A stretch of DNA of 33,743 nucleotides from Fidelibacterota bacterium CG1_02_48_14 (GTDB lineage: Bacteria; Fidelibacterota; UBA8477), in contig MNWS01000226.1 of assembly GCA_001872685.1 (NCBI GenBank), positions 1 through 33,743 of the forward strand, read 5' to 3'. How positions within the stretch are numbered: the stretch's first letter is position 1; each line of letters begins with the position of its first letter. The position numbers were made by a program, and so were the translations under genes. This document shows, in pieces, positions 1 through 32,604 of the stretch. The notes below the pieces were generated by a model. The model was not told the origin of the DNA. It saw only the letters and a program-made list of their open reading frames with translations, and did no database searches.

Positions 1-258
1 GAAATTGTCATTACGCTCCCTGCAGATACCAAGGAATCTGCCAAAGCCGACGATATTTCAGCCGGAGTCAGTGATGGTTCACTGGTTCGTGTCATCCGGG
101 CGCCCTATTTCGGGCGATTGGGACGGATAAAAAGTTTGCCGCCGGAATTGCAGCAGATGGAATCCGAAACCATGGTTCGGATTGCCGTGATCGAGTTTGA
201 AAAGGGTGATGTAAAAACGGTTCCACGCGCTAATTTGGAGATGGTCGAGACCGACTAA
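1..258 (+). CDS. 5'-truncated conserved hypothetical protein with C-terminal KOW/SH3-like domain
   Basis: Missing from the ORF track because it has no start. Frame 1 is open from base 1 to TAA at 256-258: EIVITLP...GSLVRVIRAPYFGRLGRIKSLPPELQQMESETMVRIAVIEFEKGDVKTVPRANLEMVETD. GxxVRVIRxPYFGxxGxI is a KOW-like pattern. Confidence 0.8.
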   Translation, partial: EIVITLPADTKESAKADDISAGVSDGSLVRVIRAPYFGRLGRIKSLPPELQQMESETMVRIAVIEFEKGDVKTVPRANLEMVETD

Positions 259-274
259 GATCAAAAAACATGTC

Positions 275-631
275 ATGCTAGGATTTAATGATAAAGTTTT
301 GCCAGCGCCCGACCCGGCTATTTTAACCCGGGTTGCACAGAAAATTGTGGATCGGGGTATGATGGTGCCTGCGATTTTGGCATTAGAGATGATGAAGCCA
401 TTGTCATTTATCGGTAGTCAGGCATTGGTGTTTGTAGGACCGATTTTGACTGCCTTTGTTCGGGCACAGACCTATTACGAATTGACGGAATTATTGGAGG
501 ATTACCACAATGTGGAGTTCCTCGTTTGCGAAATAGAACGCCTTGATCGGGAAGCCGGGGGTAAAAATCCTGAGGAAACCGATGCGCGGATTGAAAATGC
601 GTCGGTGCCCCGGAGTGATTCCGGCAGATAA
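275..631 (+). CDS. Small conserved hypothetical protein with hydrophobic centre
   Basis: 118-aa ORF starting 16 nt after the previous stop, co-oriented. Hydrophobic segment PAILALEMMKPLSFIGSQALVFVGP followed by an acidic helix. Confidence 0.75.
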   Translation: MLGFNDKVLPAPDPAILTRVAQKIVDRGMMVPAILALEMMKPLSFIGSQALVFVGPILTAFVRAQTYYELTELLEDYHNVEFLVCEIERLDREAGGKNPEETDARIENASVPRSDSGR

Positions 632-707
632 TAATTTGTTTCACCGCTGATTGCTTATTCATGAGCAATTGTAGCCAGATCGACCAATTTGACCTTTTGG
701 AGGGTGT

Positions 708-1574
708 ATGAAATCTGGGAAAAAAGTCCTGATGTATGCCGGAATCTTTGCGGTTCTGTTCATCATCTATTACGCGTTTGGTCATCCCTTTTTCAATGGG
801 AATCGGCTAACCATGTTTGTTTGTGTGATGGCTTTGTCTGTCACGATCTTGTACTACATCGCCAGGGCTAATGGTGGCGCAAAAATTTACCTCCGAACCA
901 TCCCGGGCTTAAAAGCCTTTGATGAAGCGGTTGGTCGTGCGACCGAAATGGGTAAATCGGTACTCTATGTTCCGGGCATTATGGACATGGACCAGGTCGA
1001 AACCGTAGCCGGTGTCATTATTTTGGGTCATGTGGCCAAGATGACCGCTTCCTATGAAACCAATCTGAATGTTCCGGTTTCCCGCTCCATCGTGATGGAA
1101 GCAAGTCGTGAAATTGTGAAGGAATCCTATATGTCGGTTGGTCGACCGGACCTGTTTAATGATGACATGGTGCATTATCTGACCGATGAGCAATTTGCCT
1201 ATGCCGCCGGCGTGGATGGCATCATGCTGCGAGAAAAACCAGCAGCCTGCTTTTACCAGGGGAAATTCTACGCGGAGTCCCTGATTCTGGCGGAAACGGG
1301 CAATAGCATCGGGGCGATTCAGATTGCCGGAACCGCATCGCCATCGCAGATTCCATTTTTCGTAACCGCCTGTGATTACACACTGATCGGTGAAGAATTT
1401 TTAACAGCGTCCGCCTATTTATCGCAAAAACCAGCGTTACTGGGGAGTGTAAAGGGGCAGGACATGGGTAAGTTTATTGTCATGATCGCCATCGTTCTGA
1501 TTTTCATTCTGAATGGTTTTCATGATTTGGGCTGGATAGATATTGATTTTCAAGAACTTTTAAGGGTGCAATAG
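708..1574 (+). CDS. DUF6754-type membrane protein
   Basis: GGAGG RBS just upstream. Two N-terminal TMs, then motifs RTIPGLKAFDEAVGRATEMG, QFAYAAG, AESLILAETGN, QIPFFVTACDYTLIGEE that I recognise as DUF6754-like, then a C-terminal TM. Confidence 0.8.
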   Translation: MKSGKKVLMYAGIFAVLFIIYYAFGHPFFNGNRLTMFVCVMALSVTILYYIARANGGAKIYLRTIPGLKAFDEAVGRATEMGKSVLYVPGIMDMDQVETVAGVIILGHVAKMTASYETNLNVPVSRSIVMEASREIVKESYMSVGRPDLFNDDMVHYLTDEQFAYAAGVDGIMLREKPAACFYQGKFYAESLILAETGNSIGAIQIAGTASPSQIPFFVTACDYTLIGEEFLTASAYLSQKPALLGSVKGQDMGKFIVMIAIVLIFILNGFHDLGWIDIDFQELLRVQ

Positions 1575-1583
1575 GAGGCCGGT

Positions 1584-2606
1584 ATGTTCTGGAAACGACA
1601 AGTTCCCATTGCGATTGTTTTTATTACGGGTATCCTGACCCTGTTTGGATGGTTTGTAGACTCCCCGAGATTTGAGGGTTTTGTGAATGACGATGCCACA
1701 CAGTGGTACGACATTATCGCGAGCTTTGCCATTATCCTGGGCGCATTGAATTTGCTGAAGCTTCAGTTTCTGAAGATCGTTAAGCAGAAAAAGGATTGGC
1801 AGTACAGTATTCTGGCAGTGGTAGGATTTTTCTTCGCCATTACCGCCGGATTTTTCTGGAAAGGCGCTAATTATATTCACATTAACAATGTGACTGCCAA
1901 TGTGTCTACGGTAGCACCGGTGATTGCAGAGATGGAGCAAAAAACGATTGAACAGGTACTGCCGCTGCTGGAAGGGGCCGATACTTACGATGTCGGGCAT
2001 ATCTTTATAATTAAAGGCAGCGCGAAAAAATATTTTGATGAGTTGACAGCCAGTGGCGTCAATGCTGAGATGAAAGAAAAATCCTGGGGGGAGCACCTTC
2101 TGGAGGAAGGCACCGTTTTCAATTGGTTGTTTAAATACCTCTTCACACCCATGTCAGCAACCATGTTCGCCCTCCTGGCGTTTTTCGTTGCGTCAGCGTC
2201 CTATCGCGCTTTCCGTATTCGCAATTTCGAGGCGACACTACTCCTGCTTTCAGGAATCATCATCATGCTGGGGCGCGTTCCACTTGGTTCGAGTATATCA
2301 GCCTGGTTTATCGCTTACATCATCGTCTTGTCTGCCGGAATGGGCGCGAATATCATTTGGAAGAATCGGATGACCACCTTCGCTGTGGTGACCGGCGGCA
2401 TTTTGCTGGTGACGATCCTGGGCTGGATCAGTGGTTGGCCGGTGGATAAGCCGGGCTTCCTATACCTGCCGGTTTTGCAGGAATGGATTTACACGGTACC
2501 CAATATCGCTGGCGCTCGTGCCATTATGATTGGGATTGCGTTGGGAATGATCGGCACGAGTTTGCGGATTATTCTTGGAATCGAAAAATCCTTCATGGGG
2601 GAATAG
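1584..2606 (+). CDS. Polytopic membrane protein of unknown function with a ~70-aa soluble insertion
   Basis: AGGAGG RBS at the preceding stop. About 8 hydrophobic segments. Motifs ATMFALLAFFVASASYRAFRIRN and ARAIMIGIALG...LRIILGIE. Confidence 0.85.
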   Translation: MFWKRQVPIAIVFITGILTLFGWFVDSPRFEGFVNDDATQWYDIIASFAIILGALNLLKLQFLKIVKQKKDWQYSILAVVGFFFAITAGFFWKGANYIHINNVTANVSTVAPVIAEMEQKTIEQVLPLLEGADTYDVGHIFIIKGSAKKYFDELTASGVNAEMKEKSWGEHLLEEGTVFNWLFKYLFTPMSATMFALLAFFVASASYRAFRIRNFEATLLLLSGIIIMLGRVPLGSSISAWFIAYIIVLSAGMGANIIWKNRMTTFAVVTGGILLVTILGWISGWPVDKPGFLYLPVLQEWIYTVPNIAGARAIMIGIALGMIGTSLRIILGIEKSFMGE

Positions 2607-2610
2607 CACC

Positions 2611-3462
2611 GTGGATAAAAATAATTTCATCAGTATTGTAATAAAGCTGGGGAAGGTTGACCGTCGGGTCATTTTCCTCCTGATTGCGGTGGTCGTCTTG
2701 CTGCCACTCCTTTTTCCAATCGGGTTGCCCATTCGGGCTACCGACACAACGCAAAGGTCGTTTAACGCTGTGGATGCGTTAGGGCAGGGCGACAAACTAC
2801 TACTCTCCTTTGAATATGGTCCCAGTACGAAACCTGAAATTCATCCCATGGCTGAGGCGGTGTTACATCACGCATTCAGCAAAGGGATGAAGGTTTACAT
2901 CGTCTGTCTGTGGCCGGATGGACAGTTTATGGCCATTGATGCCCTGAACGCCATCGCTCCGCAATACAACGCTGTTTACGGAGAAGATTATGTCCTGCTT
3001 GGATTCCGCCCGGGTGGGGAAGCGGTGGTGAAAGGAATTACGAGCAATTTGCGTAAACTCTATACTGTGGATTATCAAAATACACTCGTGGAGTCCATCC
3101 CCATGATGCAGGGCGTGAATAGTCTGGCTGATTTCAAATTGATCTTCAGCTTTTCGGCTGGCTATCCGGGAACCGTTGAATGGGTGCAGTACGGAAGTGA
3201 TCCAACGGGCGTTCCTATGTCCACCGGAACCGCCTCGATCCAGGTCAACGAGATTATCCCTTACGAAAATGCCGGTCAATTACGCGGAGTAATCGCGGGA
3301 ATGCCTGGTGCTGCCGAGTATGAGGCGTTGATAGGGAAGAAGGGATTGGGGACTTCCGGAATGGATGCTCAGTCCATAGCGCATCTGGTCATCGTTTTGT
3401 TCATTATCTTTGGCAACATCACCTATTTTCTGGAACGTAGACGTTCCGAAAAGAAATATTAA
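2611..3462 (+). CDS. Conserved hypothetical membrane-anchored protein (TM, alpha/beta domain, TM)
   Basis: The in-frame GTG at 2611 follows GGGGGA and lies 4 nt after the previous stop, so it is preferred over 2575. Motifs SFEYGPS, PDGQ, YGEDYVLLGF, GMPGAAEYE, MDAQS. Confidence 0.85.
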   Translation: MDKNNFISIVIKLGKVDRRVIFLLIAVVVLLPLLFPIGLPIRATDTTQRSFNAVDALGQGDKLLLSFEYGPSTKPEIHPMAEAVLHHAFSKGMKVYIVCLWPDGQFMAIDALNAIAPQYNAVYGEDYVLLGFRPGGEAVVKGITSNLRKLYTVDYQNTLVESIPMMQGVNSLADFKLIFSFSAGYPGTVEWVQYGSDPTGVPMSTGTASIQVNEIIPYENAGQLRGVIAGMPGAAEYEALIGKKGLGTSGMDAQSIAHLVIVLFIIFGNITYFLERRRSEKKY

Positions 3463-3481
3463 TCAGGAGGATAGATAGAGC

Positions 3482-4303
3482 ATGTATACCACTGAAATCA
3501 TTGGTGCCTGGTTCGCAGTCTTCCTGACCCTGGCCATATTTAGTTTTCTCTACAAAGACAATCCATTTTACAAAGCTGCCGAACACCTTTTTGTGGGTGT
3601 TTCTGCCGGATATTGGGCCAGTACCTTTTTCTGGACTCAAATCCAACCGAACCTGTTTGGACGGTTGTGGCCCAAACTCACTGAGGAACCATCGGGGATA
3701 AAAGCAGCATGGTACGGGATTTATGACTTCTTTGGGTGGTTTCACGAAGGGATTTTCCCGGGTGGCGGGATCGACAAGGGTCACGAATTGAATCTGTTTT
3801 ACCTCATCCCATTTTTACTGGGAATTTTCATGTTGCTGAGACTGTCCCGAAAACTGGGGTGGCTGGCTCGATGGTCAATGGCTTACGTCGTAGGTTTGGC
3901 AGCAGGATTACGACTTTATGGTTTTCTTAATTCCAATATCCTGGCCCAGGTGCGTGGGTCAGCGCTTTCATTGTTCGATGGATGGGGTACGGCAATTAAT
4001 TCCATCATCATTATCGTTGGTACACTGACCGGTCTGTTTTACTTCTTCTTCTCCAAGGAGCATACTGGTGTTTTTGGGAAAATCAGCCGCGTCGGAATTT
4101 GGTTTTTAATGGTTTCATTCGGTGCCGCGTTTGGCTTTGCGGTGATGGGACGAATTTCACTCTTGATTGGACGGTTTTACGACCTGATCCAATTCAGTGG
4201 TTCCCAATACTATCACGCGACTTACTGGCTGTTGGCTTTGATCGTCATTATTTTGGGCTTTCAGGCATTCCGGGAGCGTGGAAGATCAACCGAGGAAGCT
4301 TAA
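3482..4303 (+). CDS. Polytopic membrane protein of unknown function
   Basis: AGGAGG RBS upstream. About 7-8 TMs. Motifs LTLAIFSFLYKDNPFYKAAEHLFVGVSAGY, YFFFS, FGAAFGFAVMGRISLLIGR. Confidence 0.85.
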   Translation: MYTTEIIGAWFAVFLTLAIFSFLYKDNPFYKAAEHLFVGVSAGYWASTFFWTQIQPNLFGRLWPKLTEEPSGIKAAWYGIYDFFGWFHEGIFPGGGIDKGHELNLFYLIPFLLGIFMLLRLSRKLGWLARWSMAYVVGLAAGLRLYGFLNSNILAQVRGSALSLFDGWGTAINSIIIIVGTLTGLFYFFFSKEHTGVFGKISRVGIWFLMVSFGAAFGFAVMGRISLLIGRFYDLIQFSGSQYYHATYWLLALIVIILGFQAFRERGRSTEEA

Positions 4304-4339
4304 AATATTTCAGATTGTCGGGCAAGATAAGGAGTCATT

Positions 4340-5371
4340 TTGACTGATCGATTGCTGGATGTTGAGAATCTTAAAACCTACTTCTCCACAGAAGAGGGGC
4401 TGGCTAAAGCGGTCGATGATGTGACTTTTCATGTTGATCGCGGAGAGACTCTGGGAATCGTGGGGGAATCTGGCTGTGGAAAATCGGTTACAGCATTATC
4501 GGTGATGCGATTGATTCCAACGCCTCCGGGTGAGATTGTTAATGGCAAAATCCATTTCGATGGAATTGATGTCCGGTCATTACCTGAAGATGAGATGCGT
4601 CGGATTCGTGGCAACGAAATATCCATGATTTTCCAGGAACCCATGACATCTTTGAATCCGGTGTTTACCTGTGGCGACCAAATTATGGAAGCCATTCGAC
4701 TGCATCAAAAGGTTGACAAAACTGAAGCCCGAATACGTGCGATTGACATGCTGAAATTGGTGGGAATCTCCGACCCGGATCAACGGGTGGACGAGTATCC
4801 GCACCAGCTTTCCGGTGGTATGCGTCAACGGGTGATGATCGCCATGGCATTATCCTGTAATCCAAAATTACTCATCGCGGATGAACCGACGACTGCCTTG
4901 GATGTGACTGTCCAGGCTCAAATTCTTGAACTGATTGCCAGCCTTCAGAAAAAGCTGAACATGTCGGTCATCATTATTACGCATGATTTGGGTGTGGTGG
5001 CAGAAGTCACGAAGCGCGTCATTGTCATGTATGCAGGTAAAATTGTTGAGGAGGGGGATATTCGCACCATTTTCAAATCTCCCAAACATCCTTACACCCA
5101 GGGATTACTCAAGTCGATTCCCAACCCCGCGAAGAAGGTTGACCGGCTGGCGGTGATTGAAGGGGTTGTTCCCGTTCCGACTGAATTTCCTGCCGGATGT
5201 AAATTTCATCCGCGCTGTGAATTTGTGGAAGATCGGTGTCGTCAGCATGAACCCCCCTTGGTCTTTTATGATGCGGAAAAAGGGTTAAATGTGCGGTGCT
5301 GGGTTGCTTTTGACAAACTGGGGTTGGAAGTACCTCTGGATACTCAGGACAATCAGAGCACAAAAATTTAA
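4340..5371 (+). CDS. oppD: Oligopeptide/dipeptide ABC transporter ATP-binding subunit (OppD/DppD family)
   Basis: TTG start after AAGGAG. Walker [52 protein letters not shown], and C-terminal GCKFHPRC...C...C. Confidence 0.93.
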
Positions 5372-5420
5372 CCAGAGTATAAACACATTATCAGCTAGAG
5401 AGAGTAAAGGCTATTCGGGT

Positions 5421-6353
5421 ATGGCAGTTTCGATTACCCTGCGAAATATAACGAAAAAATTTGGAGCAGTGACTGCCGTGAACAACCTCTCATTCGGGGT
5501 GGAACACGGGACGATTTTCGCCATTGTTGGTCCCTCCGGTTGCGGGAAGAGTACTTTGTTAAAAATCATGGCGACCATGTTAGCGCCATCCCAGGGTTCA
5601 GGCTACATCAATGGCCAGAATCTGATTGCCCGACCCTGGCAGATCCGGCAGCAAATCGGGTATATGGGACAACGGGTGATTCTGGATGAACAACTCACCA
5701 TACTGGAGAATTTCGTTTTCCATTGCAAACTCCATGGATTGGATGACCAGGAAGCCGAAGCGAGAATTCTGGGTTTGGCTGAACGGTTTGATTTAATGGA
5801 CATTTTGCATGAGTTACCTGAAAGTCTTGCCTATGGTGTCCGCCGAAAAATCCAATTGGTTCGGACGCTTCTGACGCAACCCAAAATATTGCTTCTGGAT
5901 GAACCCACGCGCTCCCTCGACCGTCAGACAGCATTAAAAATTTGGGATTACCTGAAAGAGCACCGGTCCAGTCTTACCATCGTGATGATCACGAGCAGCA
6001 TGGCTGAAGTAGAACATGTGGCTGACCGATTGATTATCATGAATCGCGGGCACATTTTGGTGGATGGATCGGTTGATGAAATTCTGTATGCTCAACAACC
6101 GAACCTCGTGTTAGAGGCCACCGTTAGGGACTACGATGAGGAAGAATATCGGACCATTCGGGATGCTGAGTTTGTTTTGGGGATTTCGCGTAACGAAAAT
6201 GTCTATGAAATTATCACCAAATCACCGGCCGCCCAGGCACAGATCATTCAGCTATTTAAACCCGGGAATCTGGTTGCCTTCATTCCCAGACGGACTCGAC
6301 TGGCAGATGCATTTATTCACACGCTAACACAGGAGCAGATGATTGATGAATAA
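5421..6353 (+). CDS. ABC-2/DrrA-like ABC transporter ATP-binding protein with degenerate motifs
   Basis: Likely start is ATG 5421 (MAVSITLRNITKKFG). Walker A GPSGCGKS and Walker B LLLDEP are intact; signature reads LAYGV and the H-loop reads ITSS. Confidence 0.88.
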   Translation: MAVSITLRNITKKFGAVTAVNNLSFGVEHGTIFAIVGPSGCGKSTLLKIMATMLAPSQGSGYINGQNLIARPWQIRQQIGYMGQRVILDEQLTILENFVFHCKLHGLDDQEAEARILGLAERFDLMDILHELPESLAYGVRRKIQLVRTLLTQPKILLLDEPTRSLDRQTALKIWDYLKEHRSSLTIVMITSSMAEVEHVADRLIIMNRGHILVDGSVDEILYAQQPNLVLEATVRDYDEEEYRTIRDAEFVLGISRNENVYEIITKSPAAQAQIIQLFKPGNLVAFIPRRTRLADAFIHTLTQEQMIDE

Positions 6354-7104
6354 TGCATACCGTGCGCTCTGGTGGCGCGAATTCGTTCTTTATCGGCGGA
6401 ATTTTATCGGTGAGGGGGTTTTAAATCTTCTGTTACCGTTGATCTTTTTCTTGTTCTTAGGAATGGGTTTTCAACAAATCGTAGGCAAGATTGATGGCGT
6501 TGCCTATTTCGAGTTTCTCATTCCCGGCATGGTCTTACTCACCATAGCGCTTTCAGCTTTCGAGACGACCTCCTGGTTTTATGCCACGAATCGTCGGAAT
6601 CAACAGTGGCAGGAAGTTATTCTGATGGGGGACTTCCCGAATAAACGCAGTTTATTCTTATCGCAAATCCTGATCGGAATCGTGAAAAGTCTATTCCATG
6701 GGTTGGTTATCTTCCTCATCACCGTATTTCTCTCCGGTGCTTCTGTGTCTCAAATCAATATCCAGGCATTTTTAGCCTTTGTCCTGTTTACCGCCATACA
6801 ATTTTCAGCTTTGGGGCACATCGTCGGATTGTATGTCAAGCCGGGTCCGCTTCTGGGGCGTTTGGTGATTTTCCTGATTTTCCCATTGTTCATTGTCTCC
6901 GGAATTGGCTGGAATATTTCACAGTACACGCCGGTATTTGAGAAAATAATCTATTGGTTGCCTACCTATACACTCATGCATGGCACCCAGTCCGCCTTTC
7001 TAAAAGGCGTCATCCAAAATTTTGCCCTGATTGTCACGATTGTGGAAACAGGTGTTATCGTAGGGGTTGCACAACTGCTAACCGGCACCCGGGACGACGT
7101 GTGA
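6346..7104 (+). CDS. ABC-2 type transporter permease
   Basis: Overlaps the ATPase stop. About 6 TMs, with YFEFLIPG, PLFIVSG and WLPTY patterns typical of ABC-2 permeases. Start is ATG 6346 or TTG 6343. Confidence 0.85.
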   Translation: MNNAYRALWWREFVLYRRNFIGEGVLNLLLPLIFFLFLGMGFQQIVGKIDGVAYFEFLIPGMVLLTIALSAFETTSWFYATNRRNQQWQEVILMGDFPNKRSLFLSQILIGIVKSLFHGLVIFLITVFLSGASVSQINIQAFLAFVLFTAIQFSALGHIVGLYVKPGPLLGRLVIFLIFPLFIVSGIGWNISQYTPVFEKIIYWLPTYTLMHGTQSAFLKGVIQNFALIVTIVETGVIVGVAQLLTGTRDDV

Positions 7105-7589
7105 AAGTCTATCTCGCTGGGGCAATTGAAGCGGCACCGGATGGTGGCAGACGCTGGCGCGATGACCTCAGACCTTTTCTGGAGAATGAACTGGGATTTA
7201 CGGTTCATGACCCGACAAAGTTAGAGTTTAATGTCGTGCCCCCTGATGAATATGCGTTATTCCGGGAGTGGCGTGAAACCGATTTTACCAGGTTTCAGGA
7301 GACCATGCATCGTATTATAAAACAAGACCTTAGAACGATTATATTTGATACGGATTATATCATCTGTAATTGGGATCAGTATGTGGAAAAGGGTGGTGGT
7401 ACACAAGGGGAGCTAACGCTGGCTTTTGTGTACAGGATTCCGGTGTTCATGGTAACACAAATTCCGGTCACTCAAATCTCTTCCTGGATTTTGGGCTGTG
7501 CGACTCAAATATTTAGTAGTTATGAGTCATTAAAAAGCCACTTGAAAATACTTGAAAATGTCCGCAAAGCTAAGCTGGGTACGGCTTAA
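7101..7589 (+). CDS. Nucleoside 2-deoxyribosyltransferase-like / nucleotide N-glycosidase family protein
   Basis: GTG start overlaps the previous TGA (GTGA at 7101-7104). KVYLAGAI...WR, HDP, QD...D and GGTQGELTLA match the NDT-fold pattern (YLAG...GT..E). Confidence 0.75.
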   Translation: MKVYLAGAIEAAPDGGRRWRDDLRPFLENELGFTVHDPTKLEFNVVPPDEYALFREWRETDFTRFQETMHRIIKQDLRTIIFDTDYIICNWDQYVEKGGGTQGELTLAFVYRIPVFMVTQIPVTQISSWILGCATQIFSSYESLKSHLKILENVRKAKLGTA

Positions 7590-10951: not shown

Positions 10952-12145
10952 ATGGATAATTTGATTTTATTGGGAATTGATGGCGGCGCCTCCAAGGTGT
11001 TGATTAACCGGGTGATTTTGCATACAGATCCGATTCGTTTTTCAGCAGTTAAACCACGCATCGAAGTCAGCTATAGTTCCTCTGAATATTTCAAATCCGG
11101 TTTTAAGCCGGTCGCGCTCAAAACACAATTAAAAGAACGCAATGATGATGCTCTAAACCAAACGCCGGGTGAGAAAAATCAGGAACTTGCGATCATTGAC
11201 ACCTTCCAGCGTGCAATCAAGGCGATACTGCCTCCTAATTGTAACCAAAAACAAATTCTCATCGGTATTGGTCTGCCAGGACTGAAAACCAGTGACAAAA
11301 GGGGCATTAACGCCATGGCCAATGGTCCCAGAATGCCGCAATTTCTGACCAATCTCGAAAATGCATTGCGGGCAGCGGGATTAACCAGCCTGGATGCTAT
11401 TCACGATCTCGGTAGTGACGCTGATTATTGCGGCTTGGGTGAAAGATGGGGAGATCATGGCGCATTTCGGGATGTCTCGGATGCTTATTATATTGGGGTG
11501 GGAACCGGCGTGGCTGACGCCCTGTTATTAGACGGCCATTTGGTTCCGTTTGATGACATTAAACCATGGATGGCAAAATCCTGGGAAATTGTGCGTGAAG
11601 ATGGGGCAACCTACGAATCCATTATCTCCGCCAAAGGTATCCAGCAACAGTATGCTGATTTAACTGAGCAGAACGTCGAAACGCTAATCAGTAATAATAT
11701 TTTTCCCTGGCAAATTTATGAATTCGCTATGGACGGGGACGAACATGCAAAAGCAATCGTCACGACGGTTGCGAATGCATTTGCCGAGTTATTCTTTAAT
11801 CGGATTAAAGCTCTGGCAGTAGGTGACCCCAGTCAAAAACTCATACAAACCGGCCGCAAGTTGGAAGATAATCATCCTTTTCTGGGTAAAGTTTTAAAGC
11901 GAATTGTGATTGGTCAGCGTCTGGGTGACATTTGGCAATTCCCAGATTTTGCCCCTCTTTTTAAAGACCCGGTGTTTGCTCAACTGAGCGGTCTGATTCA
12001 CCAATCCGATTTACCTCAGGTAATAAAAAATGGTTACCTGACTCAAACAAAGCGATTGGATGATGAGTTCATCATTGGCAGCGAACTTCGTCATGCACCA
12101 GCTTTGGGAGCCGCCGTAGATGCCTACTTCAACTGGGCTAAATAG
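10952..12145 (+). CDS. ROK-family sugar kinase-like protein
   Basis: LLGIDGGASK, IGIGLPG, SDADYCGLGE (NDANxAALGE-like), YYIGVGTGV, PALGAA. No HTH and no CxCGxxGC zinc motif. Confidence 0.8.
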   Translation: MDNLILLGIDGGASKVLINRVILHTDPIRFSAVKPRIEVSYSSSEYFKSGFKPVALKTQLKERNDDALNQTPGEKNQELAIIDTFQRAIKAILPPNCNQKQILIGIGLPGLKTSDKRGINAMANGPRMPQFLTNLENALRAAGLTSLDAIHDLGSDADYCGLGERWGDHGAFRDVSDAYYIGVGTGVADALLLDGHLVPFDDIKPWMAKSWEIVREDGATYESIISAKGIQQQYADLTEQNVETLISNNIFPWQIYEFAMDGDEHAKAIVTTVANAFAELFFNRIKALAVGDPSQKLIQTGRKLEDNHPFLGKVLKRIVIGQRLGDIWQFPDFAPLFKDPVFAQLSGLIHQSDLPQVIKNGYLTQTKRLDDEFIIGSELRHAPALGAAVDAYFNWAK

Positions 12146-13436
12146 CCGAACAATTCGTGTCGGAATCATATTACCCGAAGATAACTCTCAGGAAATCTCC
12201 CTATCCTGGCCGCCTGATTTAATCGTAGCCAGCTCCCAGGATTTCGACGATCAATTAAACGAAATCACGATTCGGGTTGACCAGGGTAAACTGAGTGTCA
12301 GCCTGGGTGAATTGACCGTATTTGTGGACCATTTCTTACTCGCTTCCGGTGACCATCTCTCAGGTTTATCCGCTGAACGCGGGGTAAAAATTGATTCCGT
12401 TGTGGCCGGTCGGGGATTCCATTGGGAGAAGAAAATTCAACCGATATTGCCGGGACGGTTGCTTTTTTCCGTGGAAAATAACAGCCTGTTACTGATTAAT
12501 GAACTCTCTGTAGAAGCGTATGTCGCCTGCGTCGCCACAAGTGAGATGGGTGCTTCTGCACCAGATGCCCTGCTTGCGGCGCAAACCATCGTTGCGCGAT
12601 GCTGGGCTTTGGCCAGCGTGGAGCGTAAACACGTCGCTCTAAATTTTGATGTATGTAATGACGATTGTTGCCAACGCTACCAGGGCACAACCTATCTCAC
12701 TGATTACGCATTAGCCTCCGCGGTTGCCACTCAAAATGAAGTTCTGGTCTATAATAACAAGGTCATTGATGCCCGTTATTCAAAGTGCTGCGGTGGAATC
12801 GTTGAGGATTACACCACTGTATGGCAGGGCAAAAAAGTGCCCTATTTGATTCCGCTCTGGGACGGACCCAATCATCCTGAGGAGATGGCATTTGACGATC
12901 TCAAACCTCTTTTAGCCTATTCGGAAGCCTATTGCTCCAGTGCCAGATTTAAAGAAGTTGACCTTTTGGCGATGCTAGGGAAAGTTGATGTAACCGGAAG
13001 TTATTATCGATGGAAGCATGCTCTAAAAAAACAAGTTATCCTCGATAACTTAAAGAAACACTTTAAGGTACTATGGTCTGAAATATTTGAAATCATCGTG
13101 TTAAAACGCGGGGCCAGCGGACGGATTTCTCATCTGCGTTTAGCTGGCGTTAATCAGGAAAGTGATCAGGTTACCTTCGATCTGAAAAACGAATATGATA
13201 TTCGCCGGACATTCAATGAATCGTTTCTTTACTCCAGTGCTTTTATCATCGAAAATGCCACGACTCTGGAAGATGATACCACTGTCTATCTGTCGGGTGC
13301 CGGCTGGGGACATGGTGTCGGGTTGTGCCAGATTGGTGCCTTGGGAATGGCGCTTGAGGGCAGCTCCTACTCCGAAATATTAAGTCATTATTACCCGGAT
13401 ACCGCGTTGATGAAACTGGCTGAAGATACCTTTTAA
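12120..13436 (+). CDS. SpoIID/LytB domain protein (lytic transglycosylase-like)
   Basis: INELSVEAYVACVATSEM, AQTIVAR, DVCNDDCCQRYQG, YSKCCGG, GAGWGHGVGLCQIGA, EILSHYYP. Overlaps the ROK gene by 26 nt. Confidence 0.92.
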   Translation: MPTSTGLNSRTIRVGIILPEDNSQEISLSWPPDLIVASSQDFDDQLNEITIRVDQGKLSVSLGELTVFVDHFLLASGDHLSGLSAERGVKIDSVVAGRGFHWEKKIQPILPGRLLFSVENNSLLLINELSVEAYVACVATSEMGASAPDALLAAQTIVARCWALASVERKHVALNFDVCNDDCCQRYQGTTYLTDYALASAVATQNEVLVYNNKVIDARYSKCCGGIVEDYTTVWQGKKVPYLIPLWDGPNHPEEMAFDDLKPLLAYSEAYCSSARFKEVDLLAMLGKVDVTGSYYRWKHALKKQVILDNLKKHFKVLWSEIFEIIVLKRGASGRISHLRLAGVNQESDQVTFDLKNEYDIRRTFNESFLYSSAFIIENATTLEDDTTVYLSGAGWGHGVGLCQIGALGMALEGSSYSEILSHYYPDTALMKLAEDTF

Positions 13437-13458
13437 GAGTAATCCGGCGAGGTTAAAA

Positions 13459-14724
13459 ATGCGACGCAATATCATCCCGGAAATTACCACCTTTCTACTC
13501 CTGTCAGGTTGTTCCTTTTTTCAGCCGCAGGTGACCTTCATTGTCCCGATCCCTGAACCAACAATCCTTCCCGAACGAGCACCAGTCGTCACTGGACTCG
13601 AAGTTTTTCTCTCTACCCCTCATGATTCTGCTTTTCGTTACGGATTAATGACCAACCAAACCGGCATTGATTCAAAACTGAATTCCAATATCGTCTTACT
13701 GAACGATGCGATGACGCTGACAGCACTGTATTCACCTGAACACGGGATTTATGGCGCTGAGTTCGCCGGTGATAAGGTCGGTAAAGAGATTGATCCCCAG
13801 ACCGGCATTCCAGCGTTCAGCACCTATGGTAAAAAACCGGCTGACATTGTCCCGTTACTCGCCGGAGTGGATGGTGTTATCATTGACATTCAGGATATTG
13901 GCGTTCGGGGGTATACCTACATTTATTCCATGGCCTACATGATGGAAGCCGCGAAAATTGCAGGTAAGAAAATTATCGTCCTGGATCGTCCGAATCCCAT
14001 CAACGGGCATATCGTGGAAGGAAATGTCCTTGATCCGGCCGTGGCCTCTTTCGTCGGACTTTACCCAATTCCGTATCGTTATGGCATGACCATTGGTGAG
14101 CTGGCCTGGCTTTTCAATGAAGCATTCGGTATCCGTTGTAGCCTTGAAATTGTCCGCATGACCGGCTGGACCCGTGACATGTGGTTTGATGAAACCGGTC
14201 TGCCATGGATTCCCACATCGCCGCATGTGCCGCACCCGACAACCATTCTAAACATGATCGCCACAGGGGTTTACGGTGAACTGGGGGTCTTGTCAGAAGG
14301 CGTCGGCACCACGTTGCCCTTCGAATACATTGGTGGACCCTGGATCAAGGATCCGCATCGATTTGCCGAGGTCCTGCAAAGCCGCATTGGAGGTGGCGTG
14401 AAACTGCGACCTTGTTTTTTCAAACCCTATTATGGCCGACACCAGGGTAAGGTTTGTGGCGGTGTCCAGCTCTATATCACGGACAGAAATGCTTTCCGAC
14501 CTTATATAACAGGGTTGATCGTGGTTGCCGTTACTCGGGAGCTTTATCCTGAAATTGATTTGTTTGGCAACGAGGATCGCTGGAAAATGTTTGATCAGGT
14601 GAGCGGTGGAACCTGGATCAGAGAAGCGCTTCAGGACGGCGTTAATCCACTGACATTTGAACAGAAATGGTCGGACGAGTTAGCAGATTTTATGGCATTA
14701 AGACAAAATTATCTGCTTTACTAA
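13459..14724 (+). CDS. namZ: Exo-beta-N-acetylmuramidase NamZ family (DUF1343) lipoprotein
   Basis: Lipobox LLSGC. TNQTG, SPEHG, DIQDIGVRGYTY, LDRPNP, GMTIGELA, WIPTSP, SEGVGT, RQNYLLY. Confidence 0.92.
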   Translation: MRRNIIPEITTFLLLSGCSFFQPQVTFIVPIPEPTILPERAPVVTGLEVFLSTPHDSAFRYGLMTNQTGIDSKLNSNIVLLNDAMTLTALYSPEHGIYGAEFAGDKVGKEIDPQTGIPAFSTYGKKPADIVPLLAGVDGVIIDIQDIGVRGYTYIYSMAYMMEAAKIAGKKIIVLDRPNPINGHIVEGNVLDPAVASFVGLYPIPYRYGMTIGELAWLFNEAFGIRCSLEIVRMTGWTRDMWFDETGLPWIPTSPHVPHPTTILNMIATGVYGELGVLSEGVGTTLPFEYIGGPWIKDPHRFAEVLQSRIGGGVKLRPCFFKPYYGRHQGKVCGGVQLYITDRNAFRPYITGLIVVAVTRELYPEIDLFGNEDRWKMFDQVSGGTWIREALQDGVNPLTFEQKWSDELADFMALRQNYLLY

Positions 14725-14763
14725 TTGGAGTAGACCGACCACAAATCAGGAGTTTATGACATT

Positions 14764-17244
14764 TTGAATCATATAAAATTTTTCTATAAATCCGGTGGGC
14801 TGGCAACCCTGTTAATCATCCTAATCGTGGGATTATTGCCGACCCAAACAATCAACGCACAGGATGACAGTAGGATGGGACCCCATGAAGTGGAGTGGCT
14901 TGCTCACCAGGGTGAGGCTGATCCGATTCTGGATTTAACACCCGATGCACCGATTCAACCGCTGGTTTCATTACGCCGGGACCCTTCCCATGTCATTTTT
15001 GGTTATCACCCTTATTGGAATGGGACCTCCTATACCTCCTACAATTATGATTTACTGACTCACCTTGCCTATTTTGGCGTCGAGATGAACAGTTCCGGTC
15101 AAATCACCAATTCCCACTCCTGGCCGGTGACGAGTCTGATAAATCTCGCCCATAGTAATGGTGTGAAAGTGATTCTAACCGTGACCTTGTTTGATAACGC
15201 AGATATTGGGACGCTGGTAGGTAATGCCAGCTATCGACAGGCTGCTATTGATAATCTGATTACCAGGGTCATACAGGGAAATGCCGACGGCGTGAATATT
15301 GATTTTGAATCGGTTCCGGCTGGGTCCAAAACCAATTTTAATATTTTCATCCATGATCTCACCCAGGCTTTCCACGATCAAATCCCAGGATCAGAAACCA
15401 GCATTGCCATGCCATCTGTTGATTGGTCCAGTTCCTATGATTATGAATATTTAAATGAGAACTGCGACGGTCTTATGATCATGGCCTATGCCTATTACTG
15501 GGGTGGCAGTTCGTCGGCCGGACCGGTTGCGCCATTGTACAATGGCGGCATGGCCAGTTATAACATTGATCGGACGGTCAATTCCTACCTGACAGCCACA
15601 TCAAACGATGGCAGCAATATTTTTCTCGGCTTACCATGGTATGGTTACAATTGGCCGGTCTCAAGCACCGCACAAAATGCCACCACTACCGGGACGGGAA
15701 GTTCGATTGTCTATTCGGTCGCAGAACCGGCGGCAAATTCCTACGGCAAGCATTATAACACGGATGTCCACAGCGCCTGGTACAATTATACCGCCAGCGG
15801 TCAGCAGCGTCAGGTTTGGTACGATGACAGCCTGAGTCTGGTCACGAAATACAACTACGCCAAAACCCGGCAACTGGCCGGGATCGGCATTTGGGCATTG
15901 GGTTATGACGGGAATCGTCCCGAAATATGGGGTGGATTAAATGACGCCTTTGGTGCGTCAACGCCACCACTTTCACCAGGCTGGTTTTATGTGAAAAATA
16001 TCGGTGATGGCAATGTATTGGTCCATGCAGCGAACAGCGCTAATGCTGAGAGTTATCAATTATACCGGAGCCAGGATGCTCAAAATTTCGAATTGTTTCG
16101 TGAAGCGCCATCCCCGGCATTTCTGATTGACTCGCTTCCCATTGATACGATCCAATATTTCAAACTGAAAGCCCTCAACACTTTCGGCGCATCCGATTTT
16201 ACTGAAGTCCTGGCCGTCTCGCCATTTGTGGGTCAGTCAGAAGTGCTCATTGTGAATGGCTTTGAGCGCGTTTCCGGCACCACCAATACCTTCGATTTTG
16301 TGAAAGAACACGGACCGGCAATCTTTGCCGCCGGGTACCATTTCGATTCTGCCAGCAATGATGCCATTCCGCCTGATGTCATTTCTTTGACGGATTACGA
16401 TTTTGTTGATTGGATTTCCGGTGAGGAAGCCACCAGCAATACAGCCTTCAGTGGTAGCGAGATGGATGCCATTTCTGTCTATCTGGAAAGCGGCGGTCGT
16501 CTGATTATCTCCGGTTCCGAAATTGGATGGGATTTAGAAGCAGTGGGTGCGCCACAGGAGATTGATTTTTACCATAACTATTTTAAGGCAGATTATTTCG
16601 TAGACGATGCTGGTTCGTACGAAGTTCAGGCTATGGCTTCCGGACTGTTCAACGGCATACCGAATTTTCATTTCGACGATGGCACCCATGGCACCTATGA
16701 TGTTGATTATCCGGATGGAATCAAACCCTACGGTGGCTCAATCTCCAACCTCCATTTTGCAGGAATAGACTACACCGCCAGTGGTGGTGCCGGAATACAG
16801 TATCGGGGTCCATTCGGAACGAGTAATATTGACGGCGGACTGGTTTACCTGTCTTTTGGTTTTGAAACGATCTACCCGGCCAGCGTGCGGGAAAATGTCA
16901 TGAGCCGGATGCTGGAATATCTGGCGCCCGGGGTTTCAATTGAGAACGAGCAGACAACCACGATACCGATTTCGTTCACTCTGGGAAACGCCTACCCGAA
17001 TCCGTTCAATGGCGCGGTATCTGTTCCTTTCACGCTTCATCAATCCGGCCATTTGAATTTTGCAGTGTATGATATTAGAGGCGCGTTGGTTTTCTCAACA
17101 AACGGCATGTATGGGCCGGGAGAAAGTGTGTGGCATTGGAACGGGCAGTCCCAGTCGGGAGCTGGTCTAAGCTCTGGAACCTATTGGATTGTCGCGTGGA
17201 ATGAGATGACGCTGCAACGATCCAAAGTGACATTTCTGAAGTAG
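14764..17244 (+). CDS. Secreted GH18 glycoside hydrolase with FN3-like, accessory and T9SS/FlgD-type C-terminal domains
   Basis: Signal peptide. DGVNIDFE catalytic motif, IMAYAY, GLPWYG, QVWYDD, GIGIWALGYD. C-terminal NAYPNPFN...VYDIRG...LSSGTY...KVTFLK. TTG start 11 nt after AGGAG. Confidence 0.9.
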   Translation: MNHIKFFYKSGGLATLLIILIVGLLPTQTINAQDDSRMGPHEVEWLAHQGEADPILDLTPDAPIQPLVSLRRDPSHVIFGYHPYWNGTSYTSYNYDLLTHLAYFGVEMNSSGQITNSHSWPVTSLINLAHSNGVKVILTVTLFDNADIGTLVGNASYRQAAIDNLITRVIQGNADGVNIDFESVPAGSKTNFNIFIHDLTQAFHDQIPGSETSIAMPSVDWSSSYDYEYLNENCDGLMIMAYAYYWGGSSSAGPVAPLYNGGMASYNIDRTVNSYLTATSNDGSNIFLGLPWYGYNWPVSSTAQNATTTGTGSSIVYSVAEPAANSYGKHYNTDVHSAWYNYTASGQQRQVWYDDSLSLVTKYNYAKTRQLAGIGIWALGYDGNRPEIWGGLNDAFGASTPPLSPGWFYVKNIGDGNVLVHAANSANAESYQLYRSQDAQNFELFREAPSPAFLIDSLPIDTIQYFKLKALNTFGASDFTEVLAVSPFVGQSEVLIVNGFERVSGTTNTFDFVKEHGPAIFAAGYHFDSASNDAIPPDVISLTDYDFVDWISGEEATSNTAFSGSEMDAISVYLESGGRLIISGSEIGWDLEAVGAPQEIDFYHNYFKADYFVDDAGSYEVQAMASGLFNGIPNFHFDDGTHGTYDVDYPDGIKPYGGSISNLHFAGIDYTASGGAGIQYRGPFGTSNIDGGLVYLSFGFETIYPASVRENVMSRMLEYLAPGVSIENEQTTTIPISFTLGNAYPNPFNGAVSVPFTLHQSGHLNFAVYDIRGALVFSTNGMYGPGESVWHWNGQSQSGAGLSSGTYWIVAWNEMTLQRSKVTFLK

Positions 17245-17296
17245 AAGTACCCGTTTCGCGGATGAAAAATTATCAGTCAGGCGGAGAGGAAATTTC

Positions 17297-18637
17297 ATGA
17301 ATCATTCATCAGTCTTTCTGAAATTCAGCGTTGGTCTGAACTTACTGTTGCTATTGGCCTGTACCGGGAATCAGCCGGATGTAAAACCACACGCGCACCA
17401 GCAACAAGAGATGGTCGCAGTCCAGAAACCAATTGAAATTTTACCAGTACTCACGGGAATTGATGTTCTGGAGAGGATTAATTTCGCTCCGATTCAGGGC
17501 AAAACCGTAGCTGTCGTGTGCAACCATACCGCCCTGGATAAGCAGGGTCGGCATTTAGTGGATATTTTGTACGAATCACCGGATGTCACCTTGAAAGCCA
17601 TTTTCGCACCCGAACATGGTTTTCGCGGCGTGACCGAGGGGGGATTTGATATAAATGACTCGCTGGATCAGAAGACCGGCGCCATGATTTACAGCATTTA
17701 TGGTGACATTCGCAAACCGACCGCGCAGATGCTTAATGGTGTTGACATGATTATTTTTGACATTCAGGATGTGGGCGCACGGTTTTACACCTATATCTCC
17801 ACTATGGGGAATGTGATGGAAGCGGGTGCGGAACTCGGCATTCCGGTGATGATTCTTGATCGCCCCAATCCAATTTCTGGTTTTACGGATGGCAATATTC
17901 TGGACCTCAAATTCCAGAGTTTTGTAGGGATGTTTCCAATTCCGATTCAGCACGGCATGACAGTTGGGGAATTGGCTCGAATGATTCAAGGCGAGGGCTG
18001 GATCAATCAAGCCGCCGATTTAGATTTGCGCATCGTGAAAAATGAGGGCTGGAGTCGCGATCTGTTTTTCAACGAAACTGACTTGAAATGGGTTGATCCG
18101 TCACCCAACATGCGCAACCTGAATGAAGCGCTGATTTACCCCGGAATGTGCCTCCTCGAAGCCAATATCTGCGCTGAAGGTCGGGGGACTGACAAGCCTT
18201 TTGAGTGGGTCGGCGCACCGTTCATCGATGGGAAACAATTGGCCACCGCCTTGTACGCCGGCGGCTTGGAAGGTGCTACCGTCGAGCCTATCTCATTTGT
18301 ACCCAGGGATATGCCCGGTCGTGCTGTGAACCCGAAATTTGAAGGCCAAAAAGTTAATGGCATCCAAATCCGGGTGACCGAGCCCATGGAATTTCAGCCG
18401 GTTCAGTTCGGCGTGAAATTCCTGGTAACGGTCAAACGGCTTTATCCCAGAGATTTTAAGTGGGTAAGTGAGAGCCGCGCTGCAAGATTGTGGGGCAGCG
18501 AAACACTGGTGCAGATGATCGCTGCCGGGAAATCTGCGGATGACATTATCGCAAGTTATCAACCGGAACTTGACCAATTCAAACTTAGGCAGCAGCGATA
18601 TTTGCTCTATCCGAGCAGTCGGGCGGGCAATTTATAG
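17297..18637 (+). CDS. namZ: Second NamZ family (DUF1343) lipoprotein
   Basis: Lipobox LLAC. TGIDVL, CNHT, FAPEHGFRG, FDIQDVGARFYTY, LDRPNP, HGMTVGELA, PSPNM, EGRGT, YLLY. Confidence 0.93.
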   Translation: MNHSSVFLKFSVGLNLLLLLACTGNQPDVKPHAHQQQEMVAVQKPIEILPVLTGIDVLERINFAPIQGKTVAVVCNHTALDKQGRHLVDILYESPDVTLKAIFAPEHGFRGVTEGGFDINDSLDQKTGAMIYSIYGDIRKPTAQMLNGVDMIIFDIQDVGARFYTYISTMGNVMEAGAELGIPVMILDRPNPISGFTDGNILDLKFQSFVGMFPIPIQHGMTVGELARMIQGEGWINQAADLDLRIVKNEGWSRDLFFNETDLKWVDPSPNMRNLNEALIYPGMCLLEANICAEGRGTDKPFEWVGAPFIDGKQLATALYAGGLEGATVEPISFVPRDMPGRAVNPKFEGQKVNGIQIRVTEPMEFQPVQFGVKFLVTVKRLYPRDFKWVSESRAARLWGSETLVQMIAAGKSADDIIASYQPELDQFKLRQQRYLLYPSSRAGNL

Positions 18638-22200: not shown

Positions 22201-23589
22201 GCGAGTCAGGAGTAAAGGATATTCAACGGCAGTGACAGGTTTTTTGTCATCCAGCGCCAGGAGTACAGGATGAGGTGGCGACTCACGTGTGTCCCGGTTA
22301 ATGATTTTGTACACCTCCGTGACTGACTTACCCAGGGCATCCGGTCCTTTCCAGCCCGTAAGCACCTCTGCAGCCGGGTTCATAAATTCAATGAACCCTT
22401 TCGTATCGGTGGAAATCACCCCATCACCAATGGCGTGCATCATCACACTATGGCGTTCTGATTCGGTGCTGTAGGCTAGTTCCGACTCGTAGAGATTTTG
22501 GAAGTGTTTTTTCAGCTTTATTTGCCAGAGCATGAATCCGCCAACGACACCCAACCCAAACAACACCGCAATCAAAACCAGGATAAATCCGGAATGTTTA
22601 TGCCAGTGTGCATAAATTTCGTCCGAATCGATTTTGGAAATCAGGAGCATTTCGGAATTTGGAACCGGTAGGATATAGGCTGTGGTAAGGACATTTCGAT
22701 AATCAAGACCCGTTACAATTCCCCTCTGACCATTGATGGCTTTAACAGCGACGTGTTCTGATTTGGCAACATCCATTTTAAAAGTAAGTGCTGTCTTGGG
22801 ACGGTGTCGCAAATCATTCAGATATTCCGCTTTTTGGCTGGATTTCCGTATGAGCAGCGTTTCGGCAGATTTGCTGGATGTTGGCCAGGATTGGATCAGT
22901 GGATAGAGAAATTGCTCAGGATTCAGGACAATAACCAGTGCGCCCATGAGATTAGAATCTGTGTCAATGTCTTGATACACCGGCGCAACAACACCCAACT
23001 CGGGTGAAAGCGTATCCATATCCTGTAAATGCAGCGTGATAATTTCCGGTCGGTGATTTTGCAGTACTGCATGGAAAGCGGTGCGGAAGGCATTGTCGTT
23101 CTCCGTGTGACCATTCAAACTGAGAAGTTGCTCTCCAACGGAAGACATCAATACGACATCAATGGATTCATTTTGTCTGACGATACTCTTGAAATGGAGT
23201 AGCAGATCGCCACGGTTGGCGGCAGAAGGATCGCCCATATATCGCAACAAGCTCTGTCTTAATGGCGAATCAGCGGCGTAATCGGTCGCGTCTTCCATCT
23301 GATCTTCAATCCAAAGCGAAATTTGGCTGACTTTAATCTGGGCGATGGATGCCAGTTCATCTTCTGCATTTTTTTGCATCATCCTGGCTTGTGCGTGGTA
23401 AAAAGCGAACCCGCCCGTTACAATTCCCGCCAGAATGAGCAGGAATATCGTGCGCAGCCATCCCGGAAAGACCTGCCTTTGGATTTGATTGATTCTGGAA
23501 ATGGTTACCGTCAAACTTTCCCCCCGGGGTCGGGCGATCTTCAAACCCGCCTGAATGAACCTGATGCGGCGACTTGAATCTAAGACCAA
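19288..23589 (-). CDS. Membrane-bound hybrid sensor histidine kinase (Cache-like, PAS, GAF, PAS x3, HisKA, HATPase, REC)
   Basis: Two TMs around an extracytoplasmic domain. PAS ends [83 protein letters not shown]. The true start may be TTG at 23514, after GGGGGA. Confidence 0.95.
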
Positions 23590-32216: not shown

Positions 32217-32604
32217 TTTGATCCTCCGCTTCCTTCAGCATTTGCCGGATGACTAGAATATCCTCCGGTTGCAAATTGATATTAGGCAGAAGAAAAGCGG
32301 CCAGCCGGCTGGCAGATCCACCAAAAACCTGGTTTACGAAGTGGCTTGTCGCGCCTTCGACGACGCTGGAACGGTTCACCGTGGCGGTATAGAAATTCAC
32401 CAGCCCAAGTTTTTCCTTTTGCAGGTAACCCTTTTCCACGAGACGCTCCAAATAGGTCTGAATGGTTGTATAAGCGCGCCGGTGTTCAACCGGTAAAGCC
32501 TCCATGACCTCTCTGGCGGTCTGTCGACTCTTCTCCCAAATTCGATTCATGATAGTCCACTCGAATTTACTCAACGGTTCAAGATTTTTCTGCCTGTGGC
32601 CCAT
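32209..32604 (-). CDS. BlaI/MecI/CopY family transcriptional repressor
   Basis: LSKFEWTIMNRIW, AYTTIQTYLERLVEKGY, FVNQVFGGS. AGGAG RBS. 8-nt overlap with the M56 gene. Confidence 0.93.
   Translation of the reverse strand: MGHRQKNLEPLSKFEWTIMNRIWEKSRQTAREVMEALPVEHRRAYTTIQTYLERLVEKGYLQKEKLGLVNFYTATVNRSSVVEGATSHFVNQVFGGSASRLAAFLLPNINLQPEDILVIRQMLKEAEDQNG

Follow-up and report, generated by a model that had tools for sequence, protein, structure and literature searches.

What kind of system is encoded by the six closely packed genes that open a contig of the marine bacterium Fidelibacterota bacterium CG1_02_48_14? The genes lie at positions 1–4303 of contig MNWS01000226.1 (assembly GCA_001872685.1), a stretch of 33,743 nucleotides (nt) that is referred to here, at its full length, as the window. 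A first-pass annotation, made from the sequence alone, had taken them for subunits of one membrane complex built around a protein of family DUF6754, possibly serving the uptake of peptides or amino acids. The comparison with related loci that we present indicates that the six genes belong together with a seventh, coding for a GlmL/MutL-like ATPase of the actin fold, and that the seven products probably work as one undescribed ATP-driven machine of the inner membrane, of which we can propose the general mechanism. The conserved unit in the original idea is supported, but peptide or amino-acid uptake as its general role is not.

The layout of the cluster was confirmed as first described: six co-oriented and tightly spaced open reading frames (ORFs), all on the forward strand and with oppD next (Table 1). 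The spacing after genes 1–6 is, in turn, 16, 76, 9, 4, 19 and 36 nt, the last value being the distance to oppD. Shine-Dalgarno-like sequences (GGAGG or AGGAGG) were located ahead of genes 3, 4 and 6 and of oppD, and GGGGGA ahead of the GTG at 2611, in agreement with the ribosome-binding sites already noticed; for gene 2 there is no obvious Shine-Dalgarno sequence upstream. Two proteins with a soluble domain between transmembrane (TM) segments and two polytopic proteins had been predicted. Hydropathy agrees, giving two N-terminal TM segments and one C-terminal for gene 3 and one plus one for gene 5, and AlphaFold2 models confirm these two proteins. The small protein of gene 2 is also present, but it contains a hydrophobic stretch that goes beyond the layout first described and for this reason is not simply soluble. 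The sole family recognized by Pfam among the six genes is DUF6754 (gene 3), genes 2, 4, 5 and 6 having no Pfam match at E ≤ 0.01, and no near-cut-off NCBIfam match was found for the proteins of the cluster. Neither database gave any Opp or ATP-binding cassette (ABC) family for genes 1–6 at E ≤ 0.01, and oppD is a neighbor that lies outside the core of the system. The recurrence of all six genes in relatives indicates that the cluster exceeds what chance would assemble.

The first base of the window is also that of its contig (C245) and falls inside gene 1, and the inspection of the sequence expected upstream provided the missing ATPase. The presence there of a GlmL/MutL-like gene had been suggested, and the only strong match to this family (PF13941) in the genome was indeed found on another contig, C18 (6563 bp), at positions 4136–5533 with 415.2 bits. 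The order of genes in C18 is oppA (partial), oppB, oppC, a MutL-like gene of 614 amino acids (aa) and the start of gene 1, in which the contig ends after the first 202 codons. In relatives of the same genus the two parts are joined, the complete order being a tetratricopeptide repeat protein, cdsA, oppA, oppB, oppC, the MutL-like gene (614 aa), gene 1 (375 aa), genes 2–6, oppD, an ABC-2 ATPase and an ABC-2 permease, with identities taken from a Pfam scan of the same-genus locus L015 (where the MutL-like protein matches PF13941 with an E of 5.9e-125). Given this joined order, C18 most likely abuts the window, with ca. 88 codons of gene 1 left unassembled.

The fragment of gene 1 in the window is 80–81% identical to the C-termini of the 375-aa proteins of these same-genus relatives, and its product is the soluble 375-aa partner of the MutL-like ATPase. 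Among the 43 members of the family, weak matches recur to RnfC_N (36), Biotin_lipoyl (35), KOW (26 at E ≤ 1, best 2.6e-5) and NQRA_N (20), which points to a barrel-sandwich hybrid domain at the N-terminus and a KOW-like C-terminus; in the fragment of the window, KOW (PF00467) reached 17.6 bits, under the Pfam cut-off of 22.3. The family profile found nothing among the sequences of the PDB at E below 0.1. An overall homology to NqrA or RnfC was considered and rejected, the hhalign comparison with the NqrA of the same genome giving a probability of 3.7% and covering residues 1–140 only. Gene 2 was matched in 10/10 loci of relatives from the phylum, and in several other phyla (loci L073, L075, L089, L097, L104, L106 and L107) it is found directly upstream of the ATPase gene, an adjacency by which we assign it to the ATPase module.

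GlmL/MutL is an accessory protein encoded together with the coenzyme-B12-dependent glutamate mutase. The 614-aa ATPase resembles this family in its strong profile match and, as a member, in the actin/Hsp70-type fold, but it differs in carrying ca. 140 extra C-terminal residues and in being encoded with a 375-aa partner and membrane proteins. A role as helper of glutamate mutase was rejected: Met_asp_mut_E (PF06368), the E subunit of the enzyme, had no match in the source genome (89% complete), nor any over the cut-off in five further carriers, some of them with genomes 99–100% complete. Glutamate mutase is listed, in PMC5597319, among the non-polymerizing families of the actin fold.

The evidence that these genes form a unit comes from their distribution. 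A scan of one genome per species gave 631 DUF6754-encoding stretches, and we have kept for study 78 loci (111 DUF6754 hits) from Marinimicrobia (Neomarinimicrobiota or Fidelibacterota in the records), Zixibacteria, Ignavibacteria, Gemmatimonadota, WOR-3, Eisenbacteria, Fermentibacteria, Coatesbacteria, Stahlbacteria and others. The order gene 3-gene 4-gene 5-gene 6 is kept in 95 of the 111 hits; in another 15 a contig end interrupts the series, which is consistent as far as it goes, leaving a single exception. In ten loci of the phylum examined for all genes, genes 3–6 always appeared in the same order, and gene 1 was matched in nine. The presence or absence by genome is equally telling. Among 41 genomes sampled from the phylum, 32 contained both DUF6754 and the MutL-like gene, and in seven no match to either was detected; DUF6754 was never found alone, and the two genomes with a match to the MutL-like gene only are both incomplete (87% and 72%). 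In addition, each of five genomes (5/5) with a membrane module but no ATPase gene within 10 kb had a PF13941 gene elsewhere. Gene order and co-occurrence thus both bear out the expectation that the genes act as one unit. Within this unit we distinguish an ATPase module (the MutL-like gene with genes 1 and 2) and a membrane module (genes 3–6), which are found in the same genomes although not always linked. No gene beyond these seven was conserved across phyla among 114 flanking proteins from 19 loci.

The membrane module is also the piece that has been multiplied. It is tandemly triplicated in ten loci and duplicated in eight, mostly of Zixibacteria and Ignavibacteria, and in these multi-copy loci the ATPase pair is single wherever it is in view. 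In a tree of 117 DUF6754 sequences (a quick maximum-likelihood tree with midpoint root, the careful search being unfinished) the first, second and third copies fall in separate clades, each of them spanning phyla, indicating that duplication involves the four membrane genes together, as a block, and that the copies are old. The single copies of Marinimicrobia make a clade of their own, with 100% support in the Shimodaira-Hasegawa-like approximate likelihood ratio test (SH-aLRT). This block duplication agrees with a single motor for several membrane units that have diverged. A side result of the tree concerns L041 (CAYVVT010000005.1), titled "uncultured Lentisphaeria bacterium," whose DUF6754 protein groups within Marinimicrobia and is identical to that of genome G007, a member of the same order as the source of the window; the taxonomy in the title looks wrong.

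The two proteins with soluble domains are the best defined of the membrane module. Gene 3 matches PF20539 with an E of 3.7e-116 (387.2 bits, cut-off 27) over profile positions 5–248 of 257, and 34 columns are invariant in 111 sequences. The AlphaFold2 models of gene 3 (alignment of 111 sequences) and gene 5 (102 sequences) have a mean predicted local distance difference test (pLDDT) of 92.9 and 95.2, respectively, and both contain a six-to-seven-stranded alpha-beta domain, Rossmann-like, between membrane helices, with a long terminal helix that enters the membrane. In gene 3 the domain comprises approximately residues 63–240, with two TM helices before and one after. Foldseek searches of the PDB with both models gave no match at E ≤ 1e-3. 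By exhaustive structural alignment the best chains for gene 3 were sirtuin 3u31 (Z 10.1), TrkA-N 3fwz (9.9), MT0777 1kjn (9.6) and the transhydrogenase dIII 4j16_C (9.4), with 186 chains at Z ≥ 8, and those for gene 5 were 1kjn (10.6), 3l4b (9.0) and many dehydrogenases and TrkA-type domains at 8–9. Although TrkA-N/RCK, transhydrogenase dIII and MT0777 are among the best matches, hundreds of unrelated Rossmann-like chains lie within 1–2 Z of them, the identities are 5–13% and the domain of gene 5 is predicted to be periplasmic. The domains of genes 3 and 5 are alike in strand-helix order and have common fold matches (1kjn, 4j16_C and TrkA-type chains). The idea that genes 3/5 and 4/6 are pairs of paralogs was rejected by sequence, with hhalign probabilities of 1.3 and 1.2%.

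The distribution of lysine plus arginine residues predicts that the domains of genes 3 and 5 are located on opposite sides of the membrane. Over the DUF6754 family there is an average of 4.1 of these residues in the 15 positions after the N-terminal helix, vs. 1.45 before it and 0.85 in the C-terminal tail, and this bias following the helix places the domain in the cytoplasm. Members of the gene 5 family (n = 102) have a mean of 4.4 in 15 residues of the C-terminal tail and 2.7 before the first helix; with tail and N-terminal flank both rich in positive charge, the ends are expected inside and the domain in the periplasm. The fusions found in other lineages lend independent support to this predicted sidedness. 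Among 51 long DUF6754 proteins, 24 have beta-propellers of the PQQ_2/BamB-like type and two have Fn3 domains, all of them N-terminal to the DUF6754 part, and 9 of the 12 long forms that were checked have, before the exported domain, a signal-like N-terminal hydrophobic segment. Most of the residues invariant in DUF6754 are found at the ends of strands and the beginnings of helices (R63, R77, T79, E80, G90, T99, E190, E196, Q205, G208, T209, Q214, D223, E229, E230 and D252, among others); in the model they appear to gather where a binding site usually sits in a Rossmann-like fold.

The polytopic proteins are less easily placed. Gene 4 has an insert of ca. 90 residues (about 93–185) between the third and fourth helices, which is found only in Marinimicrobia and missing in the other phyla; the median length of the family is 227 aa, vs. 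340 in the window, and outside Marinimicrobia the match splits in two. A weak match to TMD0_ABC, which we regard as no more than a lead, was obtained with 41 of the 105 members of the family (best E of 8.7e-5), the protein of the window not being one of them, and no ABC membrane-domain family was matched by the 90 sequences of gene 6, which have 22 invariant columns. The Rnf-Nqr and NQR2_RnfD_RnfE families were absent from the matches at E ≤ 1 for these 105 and 90 sequences. Profiles of genes 4 and 6 gave nothing among PDB sequences at E below 0.1, and in the ESM Atlas both retrieved unnamed clusters only; an L12-like match to the insert of gene 4 was discarded as meaningless (TM score of 0.24). 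We have also predicted the complex of genes 3–6 from the WOR-3 locus L086, and the score (0.74, vs. 0.75 for a control with chain 3 replaced) is taken neither way.

Taken as a machine, the system would have a cytoplasmic module made of the actin-fold ATPase encoded in C18, its gene 1 partner and the small hydrophobic protein of gene 2, and an inner-membrane module made of DUF6754, the polytopic proteins of genes 4 and 6, and gene 5 with its periplasmic Rossmann-like domain. The ATPase module would dock on the cytoplasmic face of DUF6754, which is strongly conserved, and movement driven by the nucleotide would be passed by the membrane helices to the periplasmic parts, i.e., the domain of gene 5 and the insert of gene 4 or, in other lineages, the exported beta-propeller or Fn3 domains fused to DUF6754. 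In this manner the machine may move a substrate, or act on it, at the inner membrane or beyond. An already characterized complex was looked for by fold and by profile and none was found to match. There is a parallel in operation with MacB, FtsEX and LolCDE, which are mechanotransmission ABC systems. In these, as proposed here, a cytoplasmic ATPase moves periplasmic domains via membrane helices and a channel through the membrane is not required, but the present ATPase belongs to the actin fold instead of the ABC fold, and no FtsX or MacB_PCD family was matched.

Several observations weigh against a single ATP-driven machine. The two modules often lie at distant sites of the genome, and hydrolysis of ATP by the MutL-like protein is assumed from its family. 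The Rossmann-like folds are uninformative about ligand or function, since the lists of matches are flat, with best Z values of 10.1 and 10.6. Finally, a Zixibacteria chromosome (L079, 9461–11866) has a DUF6754 gene that stands by itself and whose product is extended at the C-terminus by ca. 380 residues; profile searches found no ATPase gene and none of genes 1, 2 and 4–6 within 10 kb. The same genome has also a normal module, at L093.

We would go further only tentatively. It is possible, if rather doubtful, that we are dealing with a new class of primary-active machine, with a GlmL-like motor of the actin fold in place of an ABC, P-type or AAA+ one, in which one ATPase module serves from one to three interchangeable four-protein membrane modules, each linking exported domains with a Rossmann-like domain on the cytoplasmic side, and which in Marinimicrobia would be wired to nutrient acquisition and co-expressed with Opp.

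Other explanations can be weighed by the company that the genes keep. A machine for envelope or membrane-lipid biogenesis, exporting or inserting a lipid, a lipid-linked compound or a surface polymer, seems to us rather unlikely, although it has some attractive features. Among 26 loci of Marinimicrobia with room upstream of the ATPase gene, the gene found there is cdsA (coding for CDP-diglyceride synthase) in 16, at 9–44 nt, an Opp permease gene in eight and another gene in two. Two of the cdsA loci were scanned further, L031 and L048, and both have a YegS/DAGK-type lipid kinase before cdsA. The exported beta-propeller and Fn3 domains of the DUF6754 fusions would suit an envelope function, as would the Wzy/Wzz-type genes that flank L107. 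However, the linkage to cdsA has been seen in this phylum only and the flanks are heterogeneous elsewhere: Eisenbacteria-like loci have as neighbors an M28 peptidase, an S33-like hydrolase and an ornithine/diaminopimelate decarboxylase, a Fermentibacteraceae locus a TonB receptor plus ExbB, and other loci cytochrome c assembly genes, glycogen genes or acyl-CoA dehydrogenases. In addition, profile searches of the core revealed no glycosyltransferase, flippase or known exporter family. Seven more loci have at the place of cdsA an ORF of 295–296 aa, known by its length.

The gene order in the source genome makes an accessory of the Opp importer the most immediate alternative, in which the membrane module and its ATPase would aid peptide uptake or processing together with OppABCD. 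The cluster is nested within what seems to be one opp operon, oppABC-seven genes-oppD, here and in relatives of several families. The flanking parts have a family match each, SBP_bac_5 for OppA and BPD_transp_1 for OppB and OppC (Pfam on L015, with the same ORFs on C18), besides oppD in the window; OppF is not local, and other oligo_HPY genes are on contigs C56, C47 and C156. The gaps are of 4–76 nt and a consensus scan found no terminator-like site between gene 6 and oppD or between oppC and the MutL-like gene, and the system is probably co-transcribed with opp in this genome, as judged from the sequence. A candidate internal promoter of the seven genes is a promoter-like site at the end of oppC (C18 4051–4080: TTGACC, 18 nt, TAGAAT; 10/12, a consensus match only), located 32 nt upstream of the start of the MutL-like gene. 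The eight loci with an Opp permease upstream were recognized by Pfam (L015 and L038, and L018, L019 and L022 with one or two small ORFs between), by tblastn (L041) or by ORF size and order only (L014 and L021). Of 34 loci of Marinimicrobia, the window included, 13 have a gene for an oligo_HPY ABC ATPase immediately after gene 6, and three of these (L020, L031 and L047) have cdsA and not opp upstream; in the remaining loci the gene in that place codes for an aldehyde dehydrogenase, an aminotransferase, an M6 peptidase, an ABC-2 ATPase or others. In another lineage, L107 (2226–7315) has OppA, OppD and OppF (the second ABC ATPase) directly upstream of gene 3, and near some loci there are peptidase genes (M28, M6, S8 and C1) or the mentioned TonB receptor with ExbB.

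However, the two systems have independent distributions. Five genomes have Opp-type ATPases without DUF6754 or the MutL-like gene, whereas in G033 (95% complete), a carrier of the cluster, no match to oligo_HPY was found. Only 8 of the 32 genomes with the cluster have an oligo_HPY gene within ca. 5 kb of DUF6754; these belong to families f1, f7, f8 and f10, and none to f2 or f6. G039 (99% complete) has just two BPD_transp_1 genes, adjacent and on a different contig, and two oligo_HPY ATPases, of which one is encoded next to the cluster. With only two ATPases and one permease pair, this cluster-side ATPase is most simply a normal Opp part left away from its permease. Outside the phylum Opp ATPases are adjacent in one of 43 loci (L107, a 17-kb locus without permease genes, from a genome with a complete oppBCDF on another contig), and two others (L091 and L102) have a weak OppA-like match (27–29% identity) a few kb downstream. 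In comparison with Opp/Dpp importers, then, the flanks are alike, but the seven genes have no Opp families, there is one local Opp ATPase gene, and the linkage is restricted to part of one phylum. These data indicate that the nesting in opp is old in Marinimicrobia and probably reflects co-expression of systems that are not interdependent. An Opp accessory is therefore unlikely, and the general role in peptide or amino-acid uptake, first suggested by the adjoining oppD, is not supported: the linkage is a matter of gene order in Marinimicrobia, and each system occurs alone.

An ion-translocating or redox complex, loosely like Nqr/Rnf or the transhydrogenase and with a dinucleotide bound to the cytoplasmic Rossmann-like domain, is improbable. 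In its favor are the RnfC/NqrA-type barrel-sandwich domain weakly detected at the N-terminus of gene 1, the combination of soluble and polytopic subunits with TM-anchored domains, one periplasmic and one cytoplasmic, and the presence of transhydrogenase dIII and TrkA/RCK among the tied fold matches. However, the homology to Na+-NQR/Rnf does not extend beyond that N-domain and the organism has a regular NqrA, no Rnf, Nqr or Pnt membrane family was matched and no cofactor motifs were seen. Neither gene 1 nor any of the four proteins of the membrane module has conserved cysteine clusters, the only near-invariant cysteine being C222 of DUF6754. The list of folds is flat, and the presence of the ATPase argues for ATP, and not redox, as the source of energy. 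Finally, that the genes are merely neighbors that form no complex is very improbable, for even if the two modules are separable in many genomes, the gene order kept across phyla, the duplication of the four membrane genes only as a block and the strict co-occurrence speak against it.

The rest of the window contains other features that we list for completeness. After the ABC-2 ATPase/permease pair there is a 162-aa ORF without family (7101–7589, forward strand), and ORFs of 159–162 aa occupy the same place in the relatives L014, L015, L017 and L021. A run of genes for cell-wall or chitin turnover (12120–18637, forward) comprises a SpoIID-like protein, a NamZ exo-muramidase, an 826-aa GH18 protein and a second NamZ, with an alanine racemase and a GT2 gene ahead of it. 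The reverse strand encodes a hybrid histidine kinase of 1433 aa (19288–23589) with several PAS domains, a GAF and a receiver domain, and a fusion of a BlaR1-type M56 peptidase with a TonB C-terminal domain, upstream of which there is a gene for a BlaI-type repressor (30864–32604). A forward ORF of 1723 aa (24880–30051) has as its sole Pfam match an amino-acid permease in the first 450 residues, followed by ca. 1270 more without family, and its stop is overlapped by a gene for an MscS-like channel (30051–30785).

Table 1. Genes of the cluster and its downstream neighbor in the window, and loci with cdsA upstream of the MutL-like gene.
Feature	Position	Strand	Remarks
Gene 1, C-terminal 85 residues	1–258	+	ORF open at the 5' side, at the window edge
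Gene 2, 118 aa	275–631	+	One hydrophobic stretch, residues 44–62
Gene 3, 288 aa, DUF6754	708–1574	+	Pfam PF20539
Gene 4, 340 aa, polytopic	1584–2606	+	About 7 TM segments by hydropathy
Gene 5, 283 aa from GTG	2611–3462	+	TM / soluble domain / TM; alternative start TTG 2575 (2575–3462)
Gene 6, 273 aa, polytopic	3482–4303	+	About 5–6 TM segments by hydropathy
oppD, oligopeptide-type ABC importer ATPase	4340–5371	+	ABC_tran E 1.3e-31, oligo_HPY E 5e-21
cdsA loci			L016, L020, L031, L037, L039, L042, L043, L045, L047, L048, L052, L053, L054, L056, L059, L064

A literature search, limited in coverage, found no paper on DUF6754 or on this system, and the family has 2009 representative clusters at 50% identity. 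Identities of 42–70% across phyla for DUF6754 and a mean column identity of 64% for the gene 1 family are typical of core machinery. If the seven genes do encode an ATP-driven machine of the envelope with an actin-fold motor, this would add a novel type of energy coupling to those operating in the bacterial membrane, account for a block of unknown genes in abundant uncultured bacteria of marine waters and sediments, and correct the label of "hypothetical protein" that they carry.

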